Below, piece after piece: positions 498 through 13,345 of a DNA stretch of 13,345 bases (positions are counted from its first letter, which is position 1; every line of letters begins with the position of its first letter). Source of the DNA: Rubripirellula sp. (GTDB taxonomy: Bacteria > Planctomycetota > Planctomycetia > Pirellulales > Pirellulaceae). The DNA lies in contig JARFQX010000458.1 in the NCBI GenBank assembly GCA_029287555.1, forward strand, positions 1 through 13,345, given 5' to 3'. A program made the position numbers and the translations under genes. The notes beneath the pieces were generated by a model. It saw nothing but the letters and a program-made list of their open reading frames with translations. It ran no database searches and had not been told where the DNA came from.

Positions 498-1376
498 TCA
501 GGCGGAACAACGGGTTCCCGGGCCTACTGCCGGGAAGGGACCGCATGGGATTTCGTGAGCCATCACCTCGCGCGCGGCGACGGGTAGTTGCGGCGCCTGC
601 GAGATGGGCAAGATCGCGTCGTTACCGTGAACGTAATAGGATTCCAGCCGCATTGCCCCGTCATGGTACTCCACCAGCGCCGTGCAGTTTTCGACCCAGT
701 CGCCCGTATTGCAATAAATCATCTCATCCTGATGAAAGAGGTCTGGTGTGTGGATGTGGCCGCAGATGACCCCGCGGCATCCCTGCCGCCGGGCATGTTC
801 GAGTAGCTGCCGCTGAAAATCACTCAGAAAACGGATGAACCTCTTGACGCTACCCTTGATCGAGGCGCAGGTCGCGTAGGGACTGCGTCGAGGGTCTCGC
901 CGCAATCGGCTACAGTACCAATCGAGCGATAACATTGGATCGTAAATGTAGGAGCTTGCGTGGGACAGCCACTGGGCTCGCGTTTCAAACACGTCGAATT
1001 CATCGCCGTGCGTGACGAGGAATCGCCTGCCGTCCAAGGCCTCGAAGACAAATTCATCAGCGATGTGAATATTCAAAGCGGCTACTTGTAACACGCCACG
1101 GACCTCATCCATTCGCAAGAATTGATCGTGGTTGCCAGGCGTGTAGAAGACTTGCGTTCCCCGTTCGATCATTGCAAAGAGATGTCGAAGGATCTGGCTA
1201 TTGATGGCGGGCCAACGAAACGAAGACCGAAGCTTCCAACCGTCGATGAAGTCACCAAGGATGTAGATCTTGTCCGGCTCGATGCCACGAAGGAAGTCCA
1301 ACAGAAGATGGGGCTGAGCGAATCGGCAGCCCAAATGAACGTCGCTTATGAAAAGCGTGCGTGCTTTGCGTTCCAT
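498..1376 (-). CDS. LpxH-family calcineurin-like metallophosphoesterase, PlcP-like (candidate phospholipase C supplying diacylglycerol for lipid remodelling)
   Basis: ORF 498..1385. All metallophosphoesterase motifs are present in order: SDVHLG (DxH), LGDFIDGW (GDxxD), PGNHD (GNHD), THGDEFD (H), CGHIHTP (GHxH). GNHD rather than the GNRD of E. coli LpxH, together with the GT4 gene immediately upstream in the same operon, matches the plcP-agt arrangement. I prefer the ATG at 1376 (MERKARTLFISDVHLG) over the GTG at 1385. 292 aa. Confidence 0.8.
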   Translation of the reverse strand: MERKARTLFISDVHLGCRFAQPHLLLDFLRGIEPDKIYILGDFIDGWKLRSSFRWPAINSQILRHLFAMIERGTQVFYTPGNHDQFLRMDEVRGVLQVAALNIHIADEFVFEALDGRRFLVTHGDEFDVFETRAQWLSHASSYIYDPMLSLDWYCSRLRRDPRRSPYATCASIKGSVKRFIRFLSDFQRQLLEHARRQGCRGVICGHIHTPDLFHQDEMIYCNTGDWVENCTALVEYHDGAMRLESYYVHGNDAILPISQAPQLPVAAREVMAHEIPCGPFPAVGPGTRCSA

Positions 1377-1454
1377 CACAGTCACCCATTATCCTTCTTT
1401 CATCGGCCAACGGTCGGGTTGTTTGCTCAGCCGGTCTGAACCGGAAGCGGAGCG

Positions 1455-2726
1455 TCAGGCTTGGCTCGGCTGAGTCGCCAGCGGCGAGGATGAACTTCGC
1501 CAGCTTCGCTGCAGCCAGGAGGCGCTGCGAAAGGCGAAGACTAAGCTGGATACAGCCAGGGACGAACACCGGGACGCGACGCGACGCTGTTCACGTGCCG
1601 CATCCAATGTTTCCATTGCTTCCTGGTAGCGTCTCCGCACCTCCTCGGTGGAGGCTCGCCACCCACAGCGTTCGACGTGACTCCGCGCGCGAGAACCAAG
1701 CGACCGACGAAGTTCGACGCTACCAAGCAGCTTCGCCAGCGAGGTCTGCGCCGCGTCAACATCTCCAGGACAATAGAGCACGCCGGACTCGCCATCTTGC
1801 ATTAGCGACGGGATTCCACCGGCCGCGGGCGCCAACACCGGTAATCCTGATGCCATCGCTTCCATGACCACATTCCCCATTGTTTCGGTTTCTGATCCGT
1901 ACAAGAACAGATCCGCCGAAGCATATGCCTGCGCAAGCTCCTGTCCTCGCAGGTAGCCGGTGAACGTCGTTTTGCTGCCGGCGAAGCGGCGTTCCAGGCG
2001 GGCGCGATCGGGACCGTCACCCACGATCGCCAGCCTTGCCCCGGGAAACCGCTCGATTACCTTTGCGAGAAAGTCAACGTTCTTTTCAACTGCTAAACGC
2101 GAAACCGTCAGCAACAAGGGCGTATCCGGCTCGCCCGATGTCAGCCGATACCGCATCGACTCGGACTGGCGCTTCGGTTGGAACAGTTGTGTATCGACAG
2201 CGGGTGGCCAGGTCCGAACGCGCTCAAAGCCGCGCTGCTCCAATTCCGCTCGCAAAATGGATGAAACTGTCAGGTTCACGTCGGCACAGTTGTGGTAGCT
2301 TCGAGTCAAATGCCACAGCGGGCGCGACAGCTTGCGAAGCACGGGATACTGTTTGACGAATTCACCGTACAACGTGTGAAAGGAAAAGACTGTCGGAATC
2401 GATATTCTGTGCCGTGCCAGAACGTCATGGCAGCGAAAGCCGAAGGCGAACGGATTCAGGAAATGGATCACATCTGGCGCAAACTCCCGGATTACCTCGA
2501 TAAGTCGCTCCGACGGCACGCCAATCCGATACTCGGGATAGGCGACGCACGGGAAGCTGGGAAACGAAACCGTGCGAATGGATGGGTGTTGGCAATCCTC
2601 GGCGTGGGGGCAAAAGACAACCACCTCATCACCAGCTTCGGAAAGATGTTCCAGCAGTCGCATCGTTCGCATCACGACCCCGTCAATCTTCGGCAGAAAG
2701 ACTTCCGCGATTATCGCGACTCGCAT
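1455..2726 (-). CDS. GT4 (GT-B fold) glycosyltransferase, SqdX/Agt-like; candidate diacylglycerol glycosyltransferase
   Basis: ORF 1455..2750. The N-terminus MRVAIIAEVFLPKIDGVVMRT is the typical SqdX/SQD2-type GT4 start. An EX7E motif sits in GSETETMGNVVMEAMASGLPVL. The ATG at 2726 is preceded by AGAGGAGA with an 8-nt spacer, so I prefer it to the GTG at 2750. 423 aa, with a ~50-aa tail beyond the expected fold. Confidence 0.85.
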   Translation of the reverse strand: MRVAIIAEVFLPKIDGVVMRTMRLLEHLSEAGDEVVVFCPHAEDCQHPSIRTVSFPSFPCVAYPEYRIGVPSERLIEVIREFAPDVIHFLNPFAFGFRCHDVLARHRISIPTVFSFHTLYGEFVKQYPVLRKLSRPLWHLTRSYHNCADVNLTVSSILRAELEQRGFERVRTWPPAVDTQLFQPKRQSESMRYRLTSGEPDTPLLLTVSRLAVEKNVDFLAKVIERFPGARLAIVGDGPDRARLERRFAGSKTTFTGYLRGQELAQAYASADLFLYGSETETMGNVVMEAMASGLPVLAPAAGGIPSLMQDGESGVLYCPGDVDAAQTSLAKLLGSVELRRSLGSRARSHVERCGWRASTEEVRRRYQEAMETLDAAREQRRVASRCSSLAVSSLVFAFRSASWLQRSWRSSSSPLATQPSQA

Positions 2727-2734
2727 GACTTGAT

Positions 2735-2739
2735 CTCCT
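2735..2739 (-). promoter_or_regulatory. Shine-Dalgarno-like AGGAG for the GT4 gene
   Basis: The minus-strand sequence reads gattAGAGGAGAtcaagtcATG. The AGGAG core lies 8 nt upstream of the ATG at 2726. Confidence 0.5.
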
Positions 2740-2846
2740 CTAATCCGCACGTTGGCGCGAGTCGTTCGCCGCCCTGGGGAAGCGTTGAGCGGACGGACGT
2801 GCCATCCAGCAGCCCATCGAAGCTCTGTCAGCAGATGCCGTTTGTC

Positions 2847-3668
2847 TCATCGAGGCTTCCGGGCGACGGCGATGACGATGCTGTGGTGATCCGAGACTGG
2901 AAAAACCAGGGTGTTCAGGAATTGGCGAGTCAACCAGCCTGCCCGCTGGAGCCCCAGTTCTTCGACGAATGGCGTCAGCCAGCCGCCGTGATAGGCAAAC
3001 TCCATGAACCCGTCGAAATGCTCGAACTTGAGTTCTGGCTCGAAGGTCTCGGTTATCTCCGACTCGAATCCCCCATCCTCGAATCGGCGCTTGACTTCCT
3101 GTTCGTCTTCCGGCGTTAGTAGGTTGCCTTCCGCCGAAACGCCCCTTCGGTTGAACAGTGCCTGCAGGACACGAGACTTGGCAATTCTCTGCAGCGCCGG
3201 ATAGCCCCGGCTTGTCCCGCCAACGAACGACCAATAGCCGCCGGGCTCCAAGTGGTCCCAAATTTTGGGTGCCAAAGTCTGCATCGGAACGAATCCGGTT
3301 ACGAAATGCGTGCAGATCATACCGAACGCCTGTCCGGCGAAATGAATTTCAAAATTCGCGGCATCATCGACCGCCGTGGCGATCTCCGGGATACGCTCCC
3401 GGGCGATCTCGACCATCTGTTTAGAAATATCTAGCCCGGAGGGAACGACATCCCGATCGGTCGATTGAATCAATCGCTCTAGGAACAGCCCCGTGCCTAC
3501 ACCAAGATCCAAGACACGGAGTGGTGGCAGGCCCGCTTTGAGAAGGTCGAGATCATCGAGCTGCCGAAGCGACGCTGCGATGGTCCGCTGAATCACGTCC
3601 TGAGGATCAACGTCATAATGCTTCGCAATGACTTCATCGTATTGCCTTTGAATGACTTCCTTGTGCAT
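2847..3668 (-). CDS. class I SAM-dependent methyltransferase (substrate unknown; candidate head-group N- or O-methyltransferase)
   Basis: 273-aa ORF starting at the ATG at 3668. Motif I VLDLGVGTG (3489-3515) has the usual acidic and loop context (LRVLDLGVGTGLFLERL). Later segments fit motifs II/III (IATAVDDAANF, FGMICTHF). It is the first gene of the leftward operon. Confidence 0.85.
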   Translation of the reverse strand: MHKEVIQRQYDEVIAKHYDVDPQDVIQRTIAASLRQLDDLDLLKAGLPPLRVLDLGVGTGLFLERLIQSTDRDVVPSGLDISKQMVEIARERIPEIATAVDDAANFEIHFAGQAFGMICTHFVTGFVPMQTLAPKIWDHLEPGGYWSFVGGTSRGYPALQRIAKSRVLQALFNRRGVSAEGNLLTPEDEQEVKRRFEDGGFESEITETFEPELKFEHFDGFMEFAYHGGWLTPFVEELGLQRAGWLTRQFLNTLVFPVSDHHSIVIAVARKPR

Positions 3669-4078: not shown

Positions 4079-5662
4079 ATGTCGAGTCTCTTACAACCTG
4101 GTGAGAAACGGGCGAACGATTCAAACACGCGTGGCGGCGAACCGTTCACGGCCCTCCCGCCCCCACCCGATTCCGAATGTCGCTTTGACGTGATTGTGAT
4201 TGGAAGCGGGGCTGGTGGCGCGGTGTTCGCGTGGAAGTGCGCGATGTCAGGCAAACACGTGTTATTGATCGAACGGGCCAGATCGCTTGGTTCACTTCCG
4301 CGTGACGAACTGTCCACACTCGTCGAAAAGCGTCCCTACGATAATCGCACCATCGATTTAAACGGGAAGAGCCAGCGTCTTTACATCGGCGGCACCATCG
4401 GGGGCAGCACGTCGCTCTACGGAGCGGCGTTGCTGAGACCAAGTCTCGATGACTTTCATCCGGGCCGCTACTACAGCCATCGCTTGCCCAAGTATCGATG
4501 GGACTGGCCGATCGACTACGAAGCACTGGCTTCGCATTATGACCGGGCGGAGCAACTTTTCGGTGTAACAAACCCGGCTAGCGAGGACTTTGACCCACTT
4601 CAGTCTCCCGGAACGCAGCTCAACGGCGAGCCGATTCCCCTCGCTCCGATCAATCGCCACCTGGTTGCTTCGAGTCGTTCCGCAGGATGGAAGCCGTTTC
4701 GCTTGCCGCTGGCGATCAACGGAAAGACATGTCTTCGCTGCGCCGCCTGTGCTGGCTACGTCTGCCCGAACGGTTCTCGCCGAAGCGGCGCGGATCTGTT
4801 GCGAGACGCAACCGCGGGCGATGGTTCGCTGCATCTCATCGAGGGCACCGAAACTTTGGAGTTTCGCCGGGGACTCGATGGGGCAGTCACATCGGTACTT
4901 ACACATGGCGAGAGCGATGGAGTGCGCCGGGAGTTTTATGCCAAGCGTTACGTCCTGGCCGCCGGCGCACTCGGTTCCGCCGCGGTCTTGTTGCGATCCG
5001 GGATTGGTGGTCAACACGTCGGGCGCAACTACATGTTCCACTATTCGCCCATTGCTGTCGGGCTATTTCCCTCGCCGACCGAGGCTGATCGCACCTTCGT
5101 GAAGCAGATTGGTTTCGCGGACCATTACTTCGGCACACCCGATTGCCGCGAAAAGATCGGCATCATTCAGTCGCTTCCGGCTCCGGGATTGATGATGATG
5201 CGGAAGAACGGCTCGCGTGGAGTCCCTCGAGCCATCCTCAAGGTTCTCCGCCGGCGCATGCTACCGTTGCTGGGCATCGTCGAGGACCTTCCCGATCCAC
5301 GTAATCGCATCGTCATTGACGGCAGGCGAATAGCTTTGCGTCATCGTTTCAGCGAGTTTGACCGCGCGCGCGGGCGAGCCCTTGCGAAACAAATGGTGTG
5401 TATCTTGAAGCAAGCCGGAGCCGTCCATTGCCTCGTCCGCCAGAGCACTTCCAGCGACCACGTCGCTCACCAATGCGGATCCCTTCCCATGGCCGCGAAG
5501 CGAGAACACGGTGTCGTTAGCCGCGATTGCCGCGTCTATGGGGCGCCAAATCTGTTTGTCGTCGACGGCAGTGTTCTACCCATGTCACTTGGGGTCGGCC
5601 CCGCGCTGACAATCATGGCCAATAGCTTGCGAGTCGCCGATCAGGTTGTCTCGGAATGTTGA
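4079..5662 (+). CDS. GMC-family FAD-dependent oxidoreductase (gluconate-2-dehydrogenase flavoprotein-like subgroup)
   Basis: 527 aa. The N-terminal FAD Rossmann motif is FDVIVIGSGAGGAVFA...LLIERA. The GMC C-terminal signature is HQCGSLPM...NLFVVDGSVLPMSLGVGPALTIMANSLRVADQV. An internal Cys-rich motif CLRCAACAGYVC is present. Confidence 0.9.
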   Translation: MSSLLQPGEKRANDSNTRGGEPFTALPPPPDSECRFDVIVIGSGAGGAVFAWKCAMSGKHVLLIERARSLGSLPRDELSTLVEKRPYDNRTIDLNGKSQRLYIGGTIGGSTSLYGAALLRPSLDDFHPGRYYSHRLPKYRWDWPIDYEALASHYDRAEQLFGVTNPASEDFDPLQSPGTQLNGEPIPLAPINRHLVASSRSAGWKPFRLPLAINGKTCLRCAACAGYVCPNGSRRSGADLLRDATAGDGSLHLIEGTETLEFRRGLDGAVTSVLTHGESDGVRREFYAKRYVLAAGALGSAAVLLRSGIGGQHVGRNYMFHYSPIAVGLFPSPTEADRTFVKQIGFADHYFGTPDCREKIGIIQSLPAPGLMMMRKNGSRGVPRAILKVLRRRMLPLLGIVEDLPDPRNRIVIDGRRIALRHRFSEFDRARGRALAKQMVCILKQAGAVHCLVRQSTSSDHVAHQCGSLPMAAKREHGVVSRDCRVYGAPNLFVVDGSVLPMSLGVGPALTIMANSLRVADQVVSEC

Positions 5663-5687
5663 TTCTCCAACTTCGAAAGTCGGGTGT

Positions 5688-6605
5688 ATGGTGCGAGTCA
5701 AGATTGAAGAACTCTCGCAGGCGAAACAAATTCACGGCGGGCTGGTTCAGCTTTGCGCCGCCTCCCTTGGTGTTCGCCTCGCCCGCGTTCCGATTCCAAC
5801 GCGGCGGCTGCGACGACACGTGTTTAGCCGGATCTACGGCGATAAATATCCCGCCCTTTGCGAAGCCGATTTGGAGAAGCCGCTGCACGACTACCGCTCC
5901 ATCAACGAACTCTTCACTCGCGGGATCCGCGCGGACCGTCGCCCCATGCCCGAAGGCTCCAATCAACTAATCTGTCCCTGCGATTGCACCGTCCAGGACT
6001 CCGGTACCTTGGAACGATCGCTCGTTCTAAACGCCAAAGGAATCTCCTATTCCCTCGCGTCCCTGTTAGCGACTGACCAAGTTCAATCGTTTTCGGGCGG
6101 GCAGTACGCCGTGCTGTTTCTTTCCCCGAGTGATTGTCACCGTGTGTTTTGTCCCACCGAATCGGAACTTGTCGAGATCACGCACGTCCCCGGCCGCCGT
6201 CTGCTGGTGCACCCACCCTATCAACGGAAAGAATATCCGGTCTTCACGCTCAACGAACGTGTGGTGATGCAACTGCGCAGTCCGCGCGGATCGATCGCCT
6301 TGGTGATGATTGCGGGCTGGGGTGTAGGCAACATCACGTATCGGTTTGCCTACGGACCGCGAAAGCGCTCCTATCGGTTGTCTCGCTACGTTTGCGAGCC
6401 GTCGGAACGATTCCAGCGTGGTGACTGGCTGGCGACCTTTGAATTGGGTTCGACCGTGATTCTGGCCATCGAGCCAACGGTGTGCGACTCGCTGGGCCTC
6501 GTTCCGGGCAAGACGCTTCGCTATGGAGAGTCACTGGCCCCGCTCCGATCGTCCTCATCAAAGCCTGTGTCCACGAACACGTTGACATCGAAGGGGAAGT
6601 CATGA
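5688..6605 (+). CDS. psd: phosphatidylserine decarboxylase-family pyruvoyl proenzyme
   Basis: Collinear with E. coli Psd: YRSINELFTRGIRADRRP (cf. YRTFNEFFVRPLR..RP), ICPCDCTV (cf. PADG), FLSPSDCHRVFCP (cf. YLSPRDYHRVHMP), FTLNERVV, and the self-cleavage motif FELGSTVIL (LGST at 6444-6455). I prefer the ATG at 5688 to the TTG at 5646, which would overlap the GMC stop. 305 aa. Confidence 0.85.
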   Translation: MVRVKIEELSQAKQIHGGLVQLCAASLGVRLARVPIPTRRLRRHVFSRIYGDKYPALCEADLEKPLHDYRSINELFTRGIRADRRPMPEGSNQLICPCDCTVQDSGTLERSLVLNAKGISYSLASLLATDQVQSFSGGQYAVLFLSPSDCHRVFCPTESELVEITHVPGRRLLVHPPYQRKEYPVFTLNERVVMQLRSPRGSIALVMIAGWGVGNITYRFAYGPRKRSYRLSRYVCEPSERFQRGDWLATFELGSTVILAIEPTVCDSLGLVPGKTLRYGESLAPLRSSSSKPVSTNTLTSKGKS

Positions 6606-8266
6606 TGGAAGCAATGAAACAGATTATCATCGGACCACGTTCGCCGCTGGCTCTTCGCTACGCCAAGTACCTAAGCGAAGTCGGCGGTCGGACCGTCACA
6701 CTTGTGGCATTGAGTCCGCTACCGAAGACCGAAGACGGGGATCGCCCATTCCATCTCTCTGCCGAACAGTTTGCAAGTGACACATCGCGGGCTGGCGATG
6801 TTTGCCTTGTTCTCTTCGACGTCCGCCATTGCTGCGACGACGAGACACTCATGCAAGGTGTCGAAGAACACCTGCGGAGGAATCCCGGTGCGCTGCTGTT
6901 TCTGATCAGCAGTGCATCGATTCACAGCGGCGATCTCCGCTGCTCCCGGGCGGAAACAAAGCTTCACGATCGGTTTGGACCGCTTGCGTCGCGGCTCGTT
7001 ACCCTACGCGTGACCCACCAGGTTGGTCCCGAGACGCTGGCATCCGTGATTGACGCGGAAACTCACTCCGCCCGTGGCCGCCGATCGCGCACCTTCACGT
7101 TGCTGGAACCGACCGTCGGCGTCCGAAGCCCGAACCCGCTTGAGGCATTGTCAAGCGACCCGAATGACATCGAGACAACCCGCTCGCGCGGGACCTCCGG
7201 TGCGAGCGGATTCCGATCACTCGGCAAGCTGCTCCCGCGTCCGGGCGCATCGATGCCGGAGACTCTGCGTCCGAACAGCGTCAGCGAATTGCTGACGCTT
7301 TACCATCCCTACAGCTACCAGCACGTGCAGATCGCCGGGTGCAACACGGGCGTCAAGCATTTTGGCTGGGAGTTTCCCGGCAAGACCCTGATCCAAACAA
7401 TCCGAACTGCCAGACGGGCCCGCGTGCGTGGCGACCGACTTGATGTTGACGCCGGACTGACGCTGAAACTGGCAATCGAGTGCCTGCGCCGAGTCGAGAA
7501 GGAGTTCTACGTTGTCCCCAACTACTCCTACATCAGCATGGGGACCATCTTCTTTGTTCCGGTACATGGCTCCGGCAGCGATGTGTCCACGCTGGGCGAA
7601 ACGATCGAAAAGGCACTGCTGTATCTGCCGGACGAGGACCGATTCCTGCGAATCAAACGAGGGGACCCCAATTTTGGTCGCTACATCTACCGGCCTGAAT
7701 CGAAAGCGCTTGTTTTACGCTTGACCTTTCGCATTCGTGATCAAACGCGTTATTTCGTCAAACAATCGACACACGCCACGCCGCGGGCGCGTGAAATCGT
7801 CGATCACTTCAGCGATCCGGAAGCCGTGAACGTTGAAATCCGCAAGTCGAAGGCAGCAGATGATTGTGTCACGATTCGAAAGTACTACGAGCATGACCAG
7901 ATTGCTTCCGGAAAACCGCTCGAGCTTCCCAAGGACTCGCTCGGCCGGCTCTGGGATCGATTGGAGGAAACACCGGTCGTGTCTCACCTCTTCCACGAGT
8001 ACGTACGTCGATTCGGCTATCACGTCGAATTGTTCCTCAGCAAAACCCAATTCGATCGGTTTTGGAAGGCTCATCGAGAGCTTCCGCTCAGGAAGATTCA
8101 ACTGCGTCGCATGAAGCAGGATGGACTGCCTCATTCGCCATGCAGCGACTGCGACCGAATCTCGGCCGACCTGTTCATGAAGCGATCCGACAAGGACCGC
8201 TTCTTAGCCTTCATCGAGCACCACTTGCCAGACGTCCACTTCAATCCCGGGAAGCACAGCCGATGA
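6602..8266 (+). CDS. two-domain protein: degenerate SDR/Rossmann-like N-domain + PCMH-type FAD-oxidase-like (FAD_binding_4 / ALO-DprE1-like) C-domain
   Basis: The start ATG at 6602 overlaps the psd stop (ATGA). N-domain: KQIIIGPRSPLALRYAKYLSEVGGRTVTLVA (beta1-loop-helix pattern), LISSASIHSG...CSRAETK (at the SDR S...YxxxK position, with Y replaced), LVTLRVTHQVGPE. A low-complexity R/S/P/T linker follows (~7064-7261). C-domain: VQIAGCNTGVKHFG (at the GGGHS position), LDVDAGLTLKLAIECL, SMGTIFFVPVHGSGSDVSTLGETI (cf. tvGGaiat.ahGsg..yG), and a C-terminal VHFNPGKH (cf. HWGK of ALO/GULO). This is a motif-level call only. 554 aa. Confidence 0.55.
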   Translation: MMEAMKQIIIGPRSPLALRYAKYLSEVGGRTVTLVALSPLPKTEDGDRPFHLSAEQFASDTSRAGDVCLVLFDVRHCCDDETLMQGVEEHLRRNPGALLFLISSASIHSGDLRCSRAETKLHDRFGPLASRLVTLRVTHQVGPETLASVIDAETHSARGRRSRTFTLLEPTVGVRSPNPLEALSSDPNDIETTRSRGTSGASGFRSLGKLLPRPGASMPETLRPNSVSELLTLYHPYSYQHVQIAGCNTGVKHFGWEFPGKTLIQTIRTARRARVRGDRLDVDAGLTLKLAIECLRRVEKEFYVVPNYSYISMGTIFFVPVHGSGSDVSTLGETIEKALLYLPDEDRFLRIKRGDPNFGRYIYRPESKALVLRLTFRIRDQTRYFVKQSTHATPRAREIVDHFSDPEAVNVEIRKSKAADDCVTIRKYYEHDQIASGKPLELPKDSLGRLWDRLEETPVVSHLFHEYVRRFGYHVELFLSKTQFDRFWKAHRELPLRKIQLRRMKQDGLPHSPCSDCDRISADLFMKRSDKDRFLAFIEHHLPDVHFNPGKHSR

Positions 8267-10419
8267 GGTCATCCACTGTCGCAGATGTCCGAATCGAGGA
8301 CGCGTTCGGTCAGCTGATGGACCGGCAGCTACCCAATCTGTTTCGCTTATACCTCAATCCGATCGTGACGCAGGCGTGTCTTTGCCTCTCGCGGATCGCC
8401 TCCGCAAGCAAGGATGGAGTGCGGAGCAGTGGCGGAACGTATCAGATTTTTCTTGCCAACGGCCACGACGAAGCGTTGAGTGGTGCCATAAAACTGACCC
8501 GATACATCCAGAACCTGCGCCGTCGAGATGCCAAGGTACTCATTCGGGGACCGCAACACCGTATCGCACACTTCGCCTCCACGGTCCTTCCGAGCGGACG
8601 CCGCATATGCTTTGTGCCCGAGGTGATGGAGTGCTTCGACGGCGAGGAAAGCACCAGTGCACCGGATCCCGGGAGTTTCGGCGTTGTCGTTACTTTTGCC
8701 AGCCTCGGGCAGCTAGACAATCAACTTGGCGATAATCAGCTGACGATCTTATCCGTCGGCTTGAGGGATGTCTTCAATGCCGGTGGAGATCTCCCCCGCG
8801 GATGGTCGCCCATCGCTTGTCCCGACGTGATTGTATTCGATGCATCGTGGGTCCACCACGACGTGCCGTTCTCTGCATTTGCAGCCAAGTCCACGCTGCT
8901 TCGACATTGGCGAAAGAGAACCATGTCGATGTTTCACTCAACGACCTTTCAACCGAACACCATTGCCAGTCTTCACTTATTGAATTGCCTTCGTCGCGAT
9001 GCGTGGGCGTTCATGACATCGATGAACCCGAAGCTGGAGCGGATTGAACACGATCGCAGCTATCGATGCAAGGTTTTCAGTTCACTCTACAGCCCTTCGC
9101 TCGCGCGACTCATTCGAACCACCGGCTTCGATCAATCGGAACCGACTGCGACGGGACACAAGATTCGAATCCGAGACAAGACGGTGTTTGACGCCGTCGG
9201 CGGCGTTGCCTGCAGCATCCGAGGACACAACCCGCCATCGTATTTGGACGAGATCAACGCCGTCGAGTCCGCGAATTTGCGTGGACGCCTGCAGTCAAAG
9301 CTTGAACGGCTTGTCGGGCTCGGCCATTTCATCCCAGCCGGGAGCGGCGCCGCGGCGGTCGAAACTGCTCTCAAGGTCGGGCTGGTGAGCCAGACCAGGG
9401 GTGACTATGTGTTGGCGCTGCGAGGCGGATTTGGGGGCAAGACCCTGTTCGCCTTGACTGGTACTGATAGCGACCGGTTAAAGACAAACTTGCAACCTCT
9501 CTACCCCAAAGTGATCTTCGTCGACCCGTATGCGGCCGACAGTCTGGATGCCTTGCGACACGCAATGGATCACTTTCGAGTCGGCATCGTCCAAATGGAA
9601 TTGATCCAGGGAGTCGGTGGCGTCCGCACCATTCCCCGTGCAGTCGTCGATTATGTCCAACAGCGGCGAGAGCGAGACGGCTACTGGTTGTTTGTCGATG
9701 AAGTACAAACCGGCATGTATCGAACTGGAGAGATCACGCTTTCAAAAAGGATGGGTCTTCGCGCCGACTTTTTGACGCTCGGAAAGGGCACCTCCGACAT
9801 GATGTTTCCCTCCGCGCTGGCACTGCATTCGGACGAGGTGGAAAATCGATTGCGTGAACTCGATACCGACCTGGACACGGTGCTCAGGCAACGCCATGAG
9901 CACGCGTGGGGCTACAAGACGATTCTGAACACGCTGCAGTATTGTGAGAAGCGAGAGATCCGAGAACAGGTGTTTGCCGCCGAACAGCTGTTCAGAGAGC
10001 GTTTGCACGGCAAGATCGATTGCCTGCCGAACGTGCGGGAGATTCGAGTGTTTGGCCTGTTGATCGGCATTGAATTGAAGGCAAAACAACCGCTAGCTCG
10101 CTTTGATTCATCTCTCGCCTCACTCTACCTGCTGGAGATGCTTCGTCACCCCCAATTCCCGCTGCTCGCAGGTTTCTGTCAAAACGAACGAAATGTGCTG
10201 AAGTTAACCCCGCCCTTGACGGTCGGCGCGGAGGAGATTCACCACATCTGCGACACCGTCATCGATTCTCTCAGCCGGCCCCTATCGAAGCTTGCGCTGT
10301 CAGGCGTCGGCGCGAAGTTGCGTTGCCACCTGCCCATTCAGGTCCTACGGGCTCGAGCACAACCGATCCTCAAAGTGTCAGCCGCGAACCCATCATCGCC
10401 ACACGATTCTGCGGCGTGA
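8263..10419 (+). CDS. tandem class-III (fold type I) aminotransferase: degenerate N-terminal copy + intact PLP-dependent C-terminal copy
   Basis: The start ATG at 8263 overlaps the upstream stop (ATGA). C-terminal copy: GHNPPSYLDEI, IPAGSGAAAVETALKVG, LFVDEVQTGMYRTGE, FLTLGKGTSDMMFPSA (Schiff-base Lys codon aag at 9784-9786), VREIRVFGLLIGIEL, LKLTPPLTV. N-terminal copy: LYLNPIVTQ, FLANGHDEALSGAIKLTRY, PDVIVFDASWVHHDVPFSAFA, FHSTTFQPNTIA. 718 aa. Confidence 0.8.
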   Translation: MRSSTVADVRIEDAFGQLMDRQLPNLFRLYLNPIVTQACLCLSRIASASKDGVRSSGGTYQIFLANGHDEALSGAIKLTRYIQNLRRRDAKVLIRGPQHRIAHFASTVLPSGRRICFVPEVMECFDGEESTSAPDPGSFGVVVTFASLGQLDNQLGDNQLTILSVGLRDVFNAGGDLPRGWSPIACPDVIVFDASWVHHDVPFSAFAAKSTLLRHWRKRTMSMFHSTTFQPNTIASLHLLNCLRRDAWAFMTSMNPKLERIEHDRSYRCKVFSSLYSPSLARLIRTTGFDQSEPTATGHKIRIRDKTVFDAVGGVACSIRGHNPPSYLDEINAVESANLRGRLQSKLERLVGLGHFIPAGSGAAAVETALKVGLVSQTRGDYVLALRGGFGGKTLFALTGTDSDRLKTNLQPLYPKVIFVDPYAADSLDALRHAMDHFRVGIVQMELIQGVGGVRTIPRAVVDYVQQRRERDGYWLFVDEVQTGMYRTGEITLSKRMGLRADFLTLGKGTSDMMFPSALALHSDEVENRLRELDTDLDTVLRQRHEHAWGYKTILNTLQYCEKREIREQVFAAEQLFRERLHGKIDCLPNVREIRVFGLLIGIELKAKQPLARFDSSLASLYLLEMLRHPQFPLLAGFCQNERNVLKLTPPLTVGAEEIHHICDTVIDSLSRPLSKLALSGVGAKLRCHLPIQVLRARAQPILKVSAANPSSPHDSAA

Positions 10420-10437
10420 TTCCGGCTCAAGATCCGA

Positions 10438-10443
10438 AAGGAG
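10438..10443 (+). promoter_or_regulatory. Shine-Dalgarno AAGGAG for the membrane-protein gene
   Basis: The sequence reads gaAAGGAGaagtccATG, with a 6-nt spacer to the ATG at 10450. Confidence 0.55.
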
Positions 10444-10449
10444 AAGTCC

Positions 10450-10935
10450 ATGGTCCACCCCCTGATGATCGATTTCCAGGAATTGTACCGCCGACACCTC
10501 TGTCGGCATTCTCAGTTTGGTCTCAACGTCTTGCACCTGGTCGCCGTTGTCGGGATCTACCTTTCGCTCTATCGCATCGTATTCTCGCTGCCGGGCTCGA
10601 TGTGGATTCTTGGAGCCGGATTGGCACTCTACCTTGGAATCCTATTGGCAAAGCTGCCCTTTCGGTTGTGGCTGATTAACACGGTCATGGTGCTGTTGTT
10701 GCTGTCCCTTGCCGCAGCTGCTCCAGCATTTCCCATCTGGGGATACGCCCTGCTGATCGTAGTCCTGCACTGGTTCCAGAACTGGTCGCACCGAATCTAC
10801 ACAACGGCGTTCGACATGAGCGCCTACAAGGAAAAATATCCAAAGGGCCTGCCGTTGTTTTTGACCTTATCGTTGTTCGAGCTGCCGATCTTGTTGAACT
10901 ATCTGGCGTTCGACCGAAGAAGCTGGGCATCGTGA
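10450..10935 (+). CDS. small polytopic membrane protein, possibly DUF962/Mpo1-like
   Basis: 161 aa with 4-5 hydrophobic spans (VLHLVAVVGIYLSLY, WILGAGLALYLGILLA, LINTVMVLLLLSLAAAAPAF, IWGYALLIVVL, LPLFLTLSLFELPILLNYLAF). The His pattern YRRH...NVLH and WFQNWSH resembles yeast Mpo1 (YHHNPKNVLIH and IFQFVGH). The resemblance is judged from memory of that sequence and was not computed. Confidence 0.6.
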   Translation: MVHPLMIDFQELYRRHLCRHSQFGLNVLHLVAVVGIYLSLYRIVFSLPGSMWILGAGLALYLGILLAKLPFRLWLINTVMVLLLLSLAAAAPAFPIWGYALLIVVLHWFQNWSHRIYTTAFDMSAYKEKYPKGLPLFLTLSLFELPILLNYLAFDRRSWAS

Positions 10936-11678
10936 TGCTGATCTCAAAATCCAAGCGAGTTAGAAGGACGGGGCCAGATTTTGTTCCGCAGTCGGATCCG
11001 TTTCGGCCGGTACATATTCGCCCGGCGGTTGAACCCGATCCAGGACGAGCGAGGTTGCGAGCACGTTCTGCTTTAGTGTCCGAGGTCGTCGTCTTGCTGC
11101 ACGGATTTGGCGCGCGTCCACTGATGATGCGAGGGATCGAAAGAAAGCTGCGGCAGAACCGATTCGACGTCATCAACTGGGGTTACGCGAGCACGCGTCA
11201 ATCCATAGCCTTCCACAGCGGGAGGCTGCGGGATGCGCTGGTGGGTTGTCGGCTAGTCGTTGATTACGGGCGTGTTCACCTGGTGGGTTACAGCATGGGC
11301 GCGATCATCGCCCGACACGCGGTTGCATCCCACGCGGACTTTCCTCCGGGTCGAATCGTTTTGTTAGCGGCACCCAACCAGGGAACGCACGTTGCCCGCA
11401 CAGCGGCCCGCGTGATCGGCAGGTTCTGTCCCACGCTCAACGACCTGTCCGACGCACGTTTCAGTACGGCGAACGTGATTCACACTCCCCGGGACCGGGA
11501 AATAGGAGTCATCGCCGCGAAGAACGATTGGGTGGTGCCACTATCACACACCCACCTGGCCGACCAACGAGACCACATCGTCGTGCCCGGCGATCACTTA
11601 CGACTACCACTGCTGCGAGAAACCAGTCGCCAAGTCGTAAAATTTCTGCAGAACGGCTCGTTTTCTAGGGCAAGTTGA
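10932..11678 (+). CDS. alpha/beta-fold serine hydrolase (lipase/esterase-like)
   Basis: Oxyanion region VVVLLHGFG, nucleophile elbow HLVGYSMGAII (GxSxG), later AAKNDWVVP (Asp) and VPGDHLRLP (His). The GTG at 10932 / ATG at 10935 overlaps the upstream TGA (10933-10935). A shorter start at the GTG at 11076 (MSEVVVLLHGFG) is also possible, because the first ~48 aa are a basic, Pro-rich extension with no signal-peptide character. Confidence 0.8.
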   Translation: MMLISKSKRVRRTGPDFVPQSDPFRPVHIRPAVEPDPGRARLRARSALVSEVVVLLHGFGARPLMMRGIERKLRQNRFDVINWGYASTRQSIAFHSGRLRDALVGCRLVVDYGRVHLVGYSMGAIIARHAVASHADFPPGRIVLLAAPNQGTHVARTAARVIGRFCPTLNDLSDARFSTANVIHTPRDREIGVIAAKNDWVVPLSHTHLADQRDHIVVPGDHLRLPLLRETSRQVVKFLQNGSFSRAS

Positions 11679-11992
11679 AACGGTTTTCCAACTGGGTCGG
11701 CCACTCCGGTGCGCAGGATTGTTCGGTACTGATCTTCGCACCGATTCACCAAGACACATCGCTCCAATCCGAACTCGCATTTCCTTCTATCCAACTCCGT
11801 GCCTCTGCGAGGCTGTGAGCAGGCTCCTTTCAGTAGCGGCGTGCTCCCTGGATCGTCCGGCATCCTGTTCAATGCGCTATACTCGACGGTAAGAGACTTC
11901 GGAAACGGTCAACTCTTCCGCGGATCTTGTCACCGACCGGGTGAGCGGACCGCGACGCTGGAAAGATCAATTCACTGTTGGAACCACTGAAG

Positions 11993-13345
11993 ATGGATGC
12001 TGGACTCTTTGTTACGACCGGTGCTCAGCGACAGGCTCGGCTTTGGATCGTCGTTTTTCTTTCTCTTGTTGCCCTGATACCGACGGGCTGCAGTCGCAAG
12101 CATGAGGTCGACGTCATCTCACCGCAGGAAAGTGGGGTCGTCATATCGGAGATGGAGAGTACTCTGTCGGAAAACGACTGGGGCGGCTGGCGTGGGCCGA
12201 GTGGCGACGGGATCGCCGTGCCGCAAGAGATTGTCACGACGTGGGATGAGACCACCAACGTTCTTTGGCGCGCCGACGTACCGGGACGGGGACACAGTTC
12301 TCCCATCGTGGTTGGTGATTCGGTCTTTCTGGCAACCGCGATTCAGGCCGAGGAAACGCAGTGCGTGATCGCCTACAACCGTGTCGATGGGACGGAACGG
12401 TGGCGCACCGTTCTTCATCGAGGTGGTTTTCCGTCGTCTCGAGAAGTCCATCAGAAGGCCACCAACGCCAACGGCACGATCGCCAGTGATGGACAGCGAC
12501 TATACATCGCGATGCTCAACTCCAAGGCGATCATCGCCTCCGCCCTTGATCTGGACGGTAATCTTTTGTGGCAACAGGAGGTCGGCAAATTCGCTTCCAA
12601 ATTCGGCTACGCACCCTCACCCGTGATCTACAAATCACTCGTTATCTTTGCGGCCGACAATAGCGGGGGTGGGTACCTCGCGGCGGTCGACGGCGCCAGC
12701 GGCAAGGTTGCCTGGCGCGTCTCGCGCGGCCAAGTCGACAGCTACGCCAGCCCGGCGATCGCCAACGTGGGCGGTCGTGACCAGTTGCTGATCAGCGGAT
12801 GCGATGCCGTGACGAGCTACGATCCCGCTACCGGCGAAGAGCTTTGGAGGACGCCCTGCATTGCCGACTCAACGTGCGGAACGATTGTGACCACGACGGA
12901 TCGAATCCTTGCCAGCGGCGGTTTTCCGGAAATGGAAACGGTTTGCCTGTCTGCCGAAGGCGACAAGATCTGGTCCAATTCCGAACAGGTTTATGAACCG
13001 TCGATGATTGTTGTCGGGAACTATGTCGTGGGAGTCAATGATGATGGGATCGCGACGTGCTGGGAGATTGAATCAGGAGAGCGTCAATGGAAGAAACGTT
13101 TGGGCGGAAACTTCAGTGCCTCCCCGGTGTTGGTCGATGACATGGTGATCGTACCGAACCTTGAAGGATCGACATTCGTTTTTCATGCGAGCGAAGAATT
13201 TGACGAGATTGCCGAGAACCGCCTCGGCGACGATGCCTACGCGAGCCCGGCGGTTGCAGGAGGACAAATTTTTCTTCGCATCGGGGTCGGAAAAGGGACC
13301 GACAGGCGCGAGCAACTCGTTTGCATCGGCGAGGTAGCCTCCTGA
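11993..13345 (+). CDS. PQQ-like (BamB-type) beta-propeller repeat lipoprotein
   Basis: From the ATG at 11993 the protein starts MDAGLFVTTGAQRQARLWIVVFLSLVALIPTGCSR, a signal peptide plus a lipobox-like TGC (Cys codon at 12089-12091). Propeller blades recur: NVLWRADVPGRGHSSPIVVGDSVFLAT, GTERWRT, GNLLWQQEVG, GKVAWRV, GEELWRT, GERQWKKRLGGNFSASPVLVD, ASPAVAGGQIFLR. The stop lies at 13343-13345. The TTG at 11978 is a less likely start. Confidence 0.85.
   Translation: MDAGLFVTTGAQRQARLWIVVFLSLVALIPTGCSRKHEVDVISPQESGVVISEMESTLSENDWGGWRGPSGDGIAVPQEIVTTWDETTNVLWRADVPGRGHSSPIVVGDSVFLATAIQAEETQCVIAYNRVDGTERWRTVLHRGGFPSSREVHQKATNANGTIASDGQRLYIAMLNSKAIIASALDLDGNLLWQQEVGKFASKFGYAPSPVIYKSLVIFAADNSGGGYLAAVDGASGKVAWRVSRGQVDSYASPAIANVGGRDQLLISGCDAVTSYDPATGEELWRTPCIADSTCGTIVTTTDRILASGGFPEMETVCLSAEGDKIWSNSEQVYEPSMIVVGNYVVGVNDDGIATCWEIESGERQWKKRLGGNFSASPVLVDDMVIVPNLEGSTFVFHASEEFDEIAENRLGDDAYASPAVAGGQIFLRIGVGKGTDRREQLVCIGEVAS

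Follow-up and report, generated by a model that had tools for sequence, protein, structure and literature searches.

The 13,345-nucleotide contig JARFQX010000458.1 of Rubripirellula sp. (Planctomycetota; assembly GCA_029287555.1), called the window below, carries at positions 8263..10419 of the plus strand a gene for a single chain of 718 amino acids (aa), a class-III aminotransferase preceded by a second, apparently dead copy of its large domain. Fold-type-I enzymes that depend on pyridoxal 5'-phosphate (PLP) are obligate homodimers with two symmetric sites, and the canonical class-III enzymes are homodimers of ~380-470 aa in which each subunit gives both cis and trans residues. In the Rubripirellula protein, these cis and trans roles appear to be split between two unequal modules of one chain. 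It is probably a single-chain pseudo-heterodimeric class-III (omega-type) aminotransferase, because the two modules appear complementary with respect to a trans-acting threonine, because a structure prediction places them confidently relative to each other, and because precedents exist in SerTA and in glycine decarboxylase. An earlier note, made from the sequence by itself, had described two collinear sets of class-III motifs in this chain and had proposed such an arrangement. The analysis confirms what the note had observed and bears out most of its main interpretation, while the interpretation as a whole is partly supported.

The N-terminal module (N-copy), residues ~47-262 (8401..9048, +), is a degenerate class-III large (PLP-binding) domain, but this becomes apparent only at the level of the family. 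Pfam finds a single PF00202 domain in the window protein (residues 305-667) and no match in residues 1-296, BLASTP between the two halves returns no alignment, and phmmer with the N half alone finds no match among PDB sequences. The motif pairs in the window sequence by itself would not exceed chance. Hence, self-alignment and counting of PF00202 domains, as proposed in the earlier note, yield nothing and one domain, respectively, on the single sequence, whereas two modules emerge at the family level. Three alignments were used for this purpose. A1 comprises 37 full-length homologues, A2 comprises residues 1-262 from 26 members of A1 and ends before any downstream aminotransferase-domain sequence, and a third alignment of 163 sequences combines both tiers of homologues and is the basis of the column counts given below.

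Searched against all PDB sequences, the A2 profile has 19 matches up to E 10, of which 16 are class-III aminotransferases. The best, the Aquifex acetylornithine aminotransferase 2eh6 (E 2.2e-5), is collinear with the profile (profile positions 55-222, chain residues 86-263). Three segments carry the alignment: FLANSfdEAlsGAIKLAR lies opposite FFANSGTESVEAAIKLAR of 2eh6, pDivvFDesf..vPfgafaAR opposite PDVIALAKGL..VPIGAILAR, and HSttfqPN opposite HINTFGGN of 3n5m. Scanned singly, 21 of the 26 family N-domains match PF00202 (best E 6.1e-7); the N-domain of the window protein is among the five without a match. A HMMER search with A2 through 1.84 billion representative proteins retrieves 261 proteins at E ≤ 0.001, and in nearly all long proteins found (~680-870 aa) the match is N-terminal; P0232 departs from this pattern, apparently as an open reading frame (ORF) that is merged and frameshifted. 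In a second tier of relatives (E ~1e-20), the N-copies are nearer to the canonical motifs (FFANS..EA, VFGESL, HSSTFGGN). Their N-terminal parts alone match PF00202 at E 2e-10 to 2e-4 over profile positions 78-124 and 211-318, two of them exceed the gathering score with up to 40 bits, and four of eight full-length distant relatives show two PF00202 stretches.

The two copies can also be aligned with each other. With the 37-sequence family, hhalign of the N- against the C-terminal part gives no significant alignment in global or local mode and a wrong register. With 163 sequences, a marginally significant alignment (E 0.003 over 199 columns) places Ala194 opposite Lys508, which is the register of the earlier note. 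Furthermore, the AlphaFold2 (AF2) model of the N-domain alone, built from A2, is confident, with a predicted local distance difference test score (pLDDT) of 87.3 and a predicted template modelling score (pTM) of 0.87. Its top 50 Foldseek matches in the PDB are all class-III aminotransferases (E ~1e-9, probability 1.00, TM 0.55-0.61 on the query). An unrelated fold in the N-terminal 260 residues, which the earlier note had named as a refutation, is thereby excluded. From profiles and predicted fold, the N-copy is thus clearly a homologue of the class-III large domain. The term "tandem fold" stands insofar as there are two homologous modules in the chain, but it overstates the case, since the N-copy is a truncated large domain only: its matches cover PF00202 positions ~78-318 of 403, the following module begins at about residue 290, and both the N-terminal arm (GHxxP) and the C-terminal small domain are missing.

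The C-terminal module (C-copy), residues ~290-690 (9133..10332, +), is in contrast a complete class-III aminotransferase with N-terminal arm, large domain and small domain. It matches PF00202 at E 4.5e-33 with 115 bits against a cut-off of 30.5 (residues 305-667, profile 26-400 of 403), and the closest PDB sequences are 1vef and 4ppm (E ~1e-22; 4ppm 8e-22). When the AF2 model of the full chain built from A1 is submitted to Foldseek, the match runs through the C part, with PigE (4ppm) as the best hit together with YgjG and AcOAT (E ~1e-23). All motifs lie where the earlier note had placed them. The arm holds the canonical G-H-x-x-P segment as GHNPP (9223..9237, +), found in the C-copy only and with invariant G321 and H322, in line with the reported absence of this segment from the N-copy. 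The phosphate-binding motif PAGSGAAAVE (9334..9363, +) has S361 and G362 in 163/163 and E367 in 156/163 sequences. In DEVQTG (9697..9714, +), aligned to DEIQTG of 1vef, D479 and E480 are likewise present in 163/163, and Asp479 would pair with the PLP ring nitrogen. Lys508 (codon 9784..9786, +), the predicted Schiff-base lysine, stands opposite the lysine of LTLAKA in 1vef and is a lysine in 162/163. With every checked cofactor residue kept, as the earlier note had stated, the C-copy is presumed to be a live transaminase module.

In the N-copy, three signature motifs remain collinear with those of AcOAT/ArgD (1VEF, 2EH6), OAT and YgjG, with which the C-copy shares the full fold, while the catalytic residues have been lost. 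The counterpart of the F-x-N-S-G-x-E-A...A-x-K-x-A-R motif (FLANGHDEALSGAIKLTR; 8449..8502, +), aligned to FFANSGTESVEAAIKLAR of 2eh6, retains F63, N66, E70, G74, K77 and R80 as nearly or fully invariant residues. PDVIVFDAS (8821..8847, +) corresponds to the PDI...GK(G) Schiff-base segment and aligns to PDVIALAKGL. Ala194 (codon 8842-8844) occupies the position of the Schiff-base lysine, as had been noted, and among the 163 homologues this column holds E150 D8 A2 G1 N1 Q1 and never Lys; the usual family residue is thus Glu. The equivalent of the PLP-binding Asp is ambiguous within about three residues: HMMER points to Ser164, the earlier note to Val165 and hhalign to Leu167. The claim that this Asp has been replaced by Val therefore holds only in part, since none of the three candidates is an Asp in the window protein but the exact residue is uncertain. 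As judged from the sequences, the missing lysine in all homologues, the missing Asp in the window protein and the missing arm and small domain support a catalytically dead N-copy. The subclade of the window protein (with P0012, P0013 and P0015) has the most eroded N-copy. Here, the region around the former PLP-Asp (8737-8772) is shortened and rewritten (LSVGLRDV versus LLITCVDR in the family), and Ala at position 194, found in the window protein and one other of the 163 sequences, is a rarity of this subclade; its HSTT loop is untouched.

This loop, FHSTTFQPN (8932..8958, +), is the counterpart of the class-III H-x-x-T-F-x-G-N-P segment and aligns to HINTFGGN of 3n5m. Its family form is HSTT(F/Y)QPN, and nothing else in the protein is conserved as strongly, with H225 in 163/163, T228 (codon 8944-8946) in 162/163 and N232 in 163/163 sequences. 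In human OAT, the threonine of this segment (Thr322*), to which Thr228 aligns, is contributed by the adjacent subunit and forms a hydrogen bond with the phosphate of PLP (PMC5432616). The equivalent region of the C-copy (RHEHAWGYKTILN; 9892..9930, +) is degenerate; its register is uncertain, and with an anchor on the predicted helix start at 548 the Thr-equivalent is taken as His547, a column of Y124 N21 F7 H6 among the 163 sequences. The trans-acting Thr thus appears to be lost from the presumably live copy. Losses in the two modules appear to be complementary: the live module keeps the cis residues without the trans Thr, and the dead module shows the reverse. This is the pattern expected if the N-copy fills the place of a second subunit and serves the site of the C-copy.

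The full-chain AF2 model from A1 has a mean pLDDT of 87.0 and a pTM of 0.90, a value that requires a confident, fixed placement of the modules relative to each other. Packing of the two halves as in a canonical dimer, as proposed for the pseudo-heterodimer in the earlier note, is supported only indirectly, by this pTM and by the invariant HSTT loop, while the combination of one dead and one intact module stands. A mechanism consistent with these observations can be outlined. The C-terminal module (~290-690) would be the complete enzyme and hold PLP through Lys508, Asp479 and Ser361-Gly362, whereas the N-terminal module (~47-262), having lost lysine, aspartate, arm and small domain, would have no active site of its own. 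The dead module would probably stand in for the partner subunit that a fold-type-I dimer requires and supply the dimer interface, and through Thr228 its invariant HSTT loop would reach the phosphate of the PLP bound in the live site. In the C-copy, the corresponding loop would be aimed at a site that no longer exists, and the outcome would be a single active site per chain.

Two further segments complete the chain. The family-specific N-terminal segment (residues 1-46; 8263..8400, +) carries the motif PNLFRLYLNP..Q.C.CL, which is without counterpart in canonical aminotransferases. P24, N25, R28, P33, C39 and L42 are invariant in the 37 sequences and C41 is also part of the motif; AF2 predicts helices at residues 11-20 and 33-47. 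The segment may form part of the active-site entrance, in which case its motif would be one wall of an asymmetric substrate entrance. A helical connector (residues 263-290; 9049..9132, +), with helices predicted at 265-276 and 278-287 at high pLDDT, leads into the N-terminal arm of the C-copy. The NCBIfam PigE alignment to the window protein begins at residue 260.

The fusion itself is genuine and conserved. The start codon, ATG 8263, shares bases with the stop codon of the preceding gene (cgATGAgg), and the gene ends with TGA at 10417-10419. A longer ORF from TTG 8062 (785 aa) was discarded in favour of this start on the basis of the homologue lengths and the ATGA overlap. Among the best 120 of 668 strong matches, nearly all homologues are ~690-760 aa long with a query coverage of 92-98%, and an identical 718-aa protein is present in the public protein collection (P0011). 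Across 84 loci, the HSTT motif of the N-copy and the DEVQTG and GK motifs of the C-copy lie in one uninterrupted frame in 78; the exceptions are two loci at contig ends and four with an interrupted frame (L029, L077, L081 and L084). These four are contigs of metagenome-assembled genomes, and the interruptions may be indel errors and not true gene splits. No split two-gene version was seen among the 84 loci. The earlier note had also raised the question of how widespread the fusion is. With each GTDB species represented by a single genome, the family was found in 99 species, mostly Planctomycetota (Pirellulales, Gemmataceae, Planctomycetaceae, Tepidisphaerales and Isosphaeraceae). The cultured carriers among the Isosphaeraceae include Paludisphaera soli, Aquisphaera insulae and Singulisphaera acidiphila DSM 18658, whose orthologue lies at ~5.139 Mb of NC_019892.1. 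A few carriers are cyanobacterial (Hyella patelloides, Trichodesmium and Mastigocoleus; L024, L027, L030 and L046) and have most of the operon described below as well. The patchy occurrence beyond Planctomycetota suggests horizontal transfer.

Several observations weigh against a pseudo-heterodimer. The N-copy of the window protein by itself yields no significant match, the register of the C-copy H-x-x-T segment is uncertain, with Thr553 (128/163) as a possible alternative equivalent of the apparently lost threonine, and literature searches turned up no biochemical data for any family member. Many relatives carry an Asp near the PLP-Asp position (CVDR, two residues on), and this Asp and the NS..EA motif are well kept, so that some ligand binding by the N-copy is conceivable on sequence grounds. 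The single domain seen by Pfam and BLAST in the single sequence could even be taken to mean that two genes were joined by a sequencing or assembly error, or that the first 260 residues belong to some unrelated fold. The chance of this is close to nil given more than 160 full-length homologues of the same architecture, the uninterrupted frame in 78 of 84 independent genomes, the identical database protein, and the profile and fold evidence that places the N-domain in class III.

A more serious alternative, although in our view an unlikely one, is that the N-copy is an accessory module for regulation, docking to a partner or the membrane, or substrate delivery, carried on a C-copy homodimer with two active sites. 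Other class-III enzymes with N-terminal additions, such as the reductase domain of PigE or the extension of YgjG, still dimerise via the aminotransferase domain, and SerTA heterodimers associate further into tetramers. However, pairing of two C-copies would need a trans Thr loop of their own, which is degenerate in the C-copy and invariant in the N-copy; it would leave unexplained why the addition is a large domain, the dimerisation element, and the pTM of 0.90 points to tight, fixed packing. It is quite improbable that the N-copy is alive in a lysine-independent manner, binding PLP, pyridoxamine 5'-phosphate or a substrate head group non-covalently as an allosteric or holding site. The conserved F-L-A-N-S..E-A...K-L-A-R motif, D188, F192, D193, Glu194 (150/163) and W216 would fit such a role, as would the Asp that many relatives have close to the site of the PLP-Asp and a low-confidence proposal of N-terminal PLP binding in GLDC (PMC7259800). 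Yet no homologue has the Lys, there is no small domain or arm to close the pocket, and the window subclade has lost both Glu194 and the CVDR Asp while keeping the HSTT loop; interface and trans-loop roles explain the conservation equally well. Thus, the single-chain pseudo-heterodimer remains the reading that we regard as probable.

The closest parallel in mechanism is SerTA of Serratia sp. ATCC 39006, which consists of the full-length Ser5 and of Ser4, a paralogue of ~210 residues that is essentially a large domain and has neither Lys nor Asp (PMC11726168). Each heterodimer has one active site, where residues of Ser4 touch the phosphate of PLP, and the heterodimers further associate into tetramers (PMC11726168). 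Both systems combine a full-length fold-type-I enzyme with a short, Lys-less, large-domain-only copy, here known from sequence. The contribution of Ser4 to the active site is established, whereas that of the N-copy is inferred from the HSTT loop. Unlike Ser4 and Ser5, which are separate polypeptides of the sugar-aminotransferase (DegT-like) type, the present protein is one fused class-III chain. Moreover, SerTA lies within an amino-group carrier protein cluster and the window gene in a different operon. No SerTA chain is among the matches of the A2 profile in the PDB up to E 10, and this lack of detectable similarity between the N-copy and Ser4 makes an independent origin likely.

The closest parallel within a single chain is the glycine decarboxylase P-protein, of which structures are available (4LHC and others). 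As in the window protein, GcvP/GLDC has two homologous fold-type-I halves in one polypeptide and the lysine only in the C-terminal half, which in GcvP carries PLP. The two differ in that GcvP belongs to a decarboxylase family of ~950-1000 aa with near full-length halves, whereas the dead half here is a large domain only. The P-protein has an N-terminal PLP fold without the lysine, and a split alpha-beta form also exists (PMC7259800), found in some prokaryotes, in contrast to the absence of split versions among the 84 loci. The window protein gave no indication of GcvP membership: its only Pfam match is PF00202, and its NCBIfam matches are all class-III.

PigE carries a reductase domain that releases an aldehyde, which the enzyme then aminates (PMC8341465, PMC10829540). 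PigE (4PPM) and related fusions are multi-domain class-III enzymes that aminate hydrophobic aldehydes in secondary metabolism. PigE is the best Foldseek match, and the C-copy also matches the NCBIfam PigE model (E 3e-33). It nevertheless falls short of PigE proper (NF053554), with 115 bits against an equivalog cut-off of 850 and with residues 260-608 on profile positions 371-730 of 837. The A2 profile matches only the aminotransferase domain of PigE (residues 496-697). The N-domain of PigE as a further dead aminotransferase copy was considered and excluded, as it is an acyl-thioester reductase (AAR-like) domain unmatched by the N-copy profile. In known natural transaminase fusions, the partners are reductases or dethiobiotin synthetase and not a dead transaminase (PMC10829540). 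Hence, the architecture called unusual in the earlier note is unusual for class III, but a dead partner is not new to fold-type-I enzymes, given the P-protein (PMC7259800) and SerTA (PMC11726168). Our literature searches found no description of a tandem class-III aminotransferase, of this family or of its operon.

The aminotransferase gene lies within a tightly packed plus-strand operon (4079-10935). It comprises a GMC oxidoreductase (4079-5662, +), a PSD-like decarboxylase (5646-6605, +), a ~555-590-aa FAD_binding_4-like protein (~6600-8266, +) directly upstream of the aminotransferase, and downstream of it a 161-aa membrane protein with about four hydrophobic helices (10450-10935, +), whose gene is preceded by a Shine-Dalgarno-like aaaggag. 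A 594-codon ORF at 6482-8266 (+) overlaps the end of the PSD gene, but translation probably begins at the Met pair near 6602 (MMEAMKQIIIG...). The window copy of the ~555-590-aa protein has neither a Pfam match nor a PDB sequence match. A Gemmataceae orthologue (L003 6220-7989) matches FAD_binding_4 at 29 bits, above the cut-off, and the protein is probably a VAO/PCMH-type flavoenzyme. The 161-aa protein and two orthologues show weak, sub-threshold but consistent matches to Mpo1-like proteins (2-hydroxy fatty acid dioxygenase, PF06127), and a conserved stretch HWFQNWSHRIY is found in the membrane protein. Divergent genes upstream (498-3668, -) encode a methyltransferase, a GT4 glycosyltransferase and an LpxH-like metallophosphatase; the best NCBIfam match of the GT4 protein is a GlcNAc-phosphatidylglycerol synthase, well under the cut-off.

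Gene order in the operon is kept across Planctomycetota and some Cyanobacteria. By tblastn in the 84 loci, with counts limited by the flank length of the loci, the flavoprotein-like gene is found in 83, the membrane protein in 78, PSD in 73, GMC in 71, the methyltransferase in 63 and GT4 in 43. An alpha/beta hydrolase gene (10932-11678, +) that overlaps the end of the membrane-protein gene is near the operon in 4/84 loci, and a PQQ/BamB-like beta-propeller gene (11978-13345, +), which continues past the window end, in 1/84; these two are not conserved operon partners. In the second tier, L085, L087 and L088 (P0244, P0252 and P0266) have the same dead-plus-live architecture, and the genomes are apparently high-GC and possibly actinobacterial. 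These second-tier genes adjoin MMPL transporters and an LmeA-like protein or, in one case, lie directly upstream of a non-ribosomal peptide synthetase with a terminal reductase domain, where a P450 is also found. P0257 and P0266 have an additional C-terminal F420H2_quin_red-like domain.

The closest characterised enzymes to the C-copy are PigE and the putrescine aminotransferase YgjG. On account of this proximity and of the gene context, we assign with moderate confidence, by analogy, an amine/aldehyde (omega) transaminase activity on a hydrophobic or lipid-linked aldehyde. A plausible source of the aldehyde is the neighbouring GMC flavoprotein, and the aminotransferase would turn this aldehyde into the amine as in PigE-type enzymes. 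The lipid-like substrate and an asymmetric lipid pocket, both raised in the earlier note, are suggested by gene context alone. A bolder scenario, to which we give only a small chance, is that the operon, with the methyltransferase and GT4 genes alongside, directs the synthesis of a new amino-lipid or lipid head group in Planctomycetota and some Cyanobacteria. The dead half-copy, with its unique invariant N-terminal motif, would then have evolved into an asymmetric, membrane-facing entrance through which a single active site could take up a bulky lipid-linked aldehyde.

Database names for the homologues are "aminotransferase class III-fold enzyme" or "acetylornithine aminotransferase", and such annotation labels overlook both the two-module architecture and the likely function. 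Cases of dead-partner fold-type-I enzymes are few, namely the P-protein and the recently solved SerTA, with none for class III in the literature searched. If the pseudo-heterodimer is correct, this family would be a natural single-chain example and a natural experiment on which parts of a partner subunit are needed. In that case, the enzyme would moreover be a monomeric omega-transaminase scaffold of possible use in biocatalysis. Furthermore, the analysis flags a conserved operon in about 100 species, culturable ones included.

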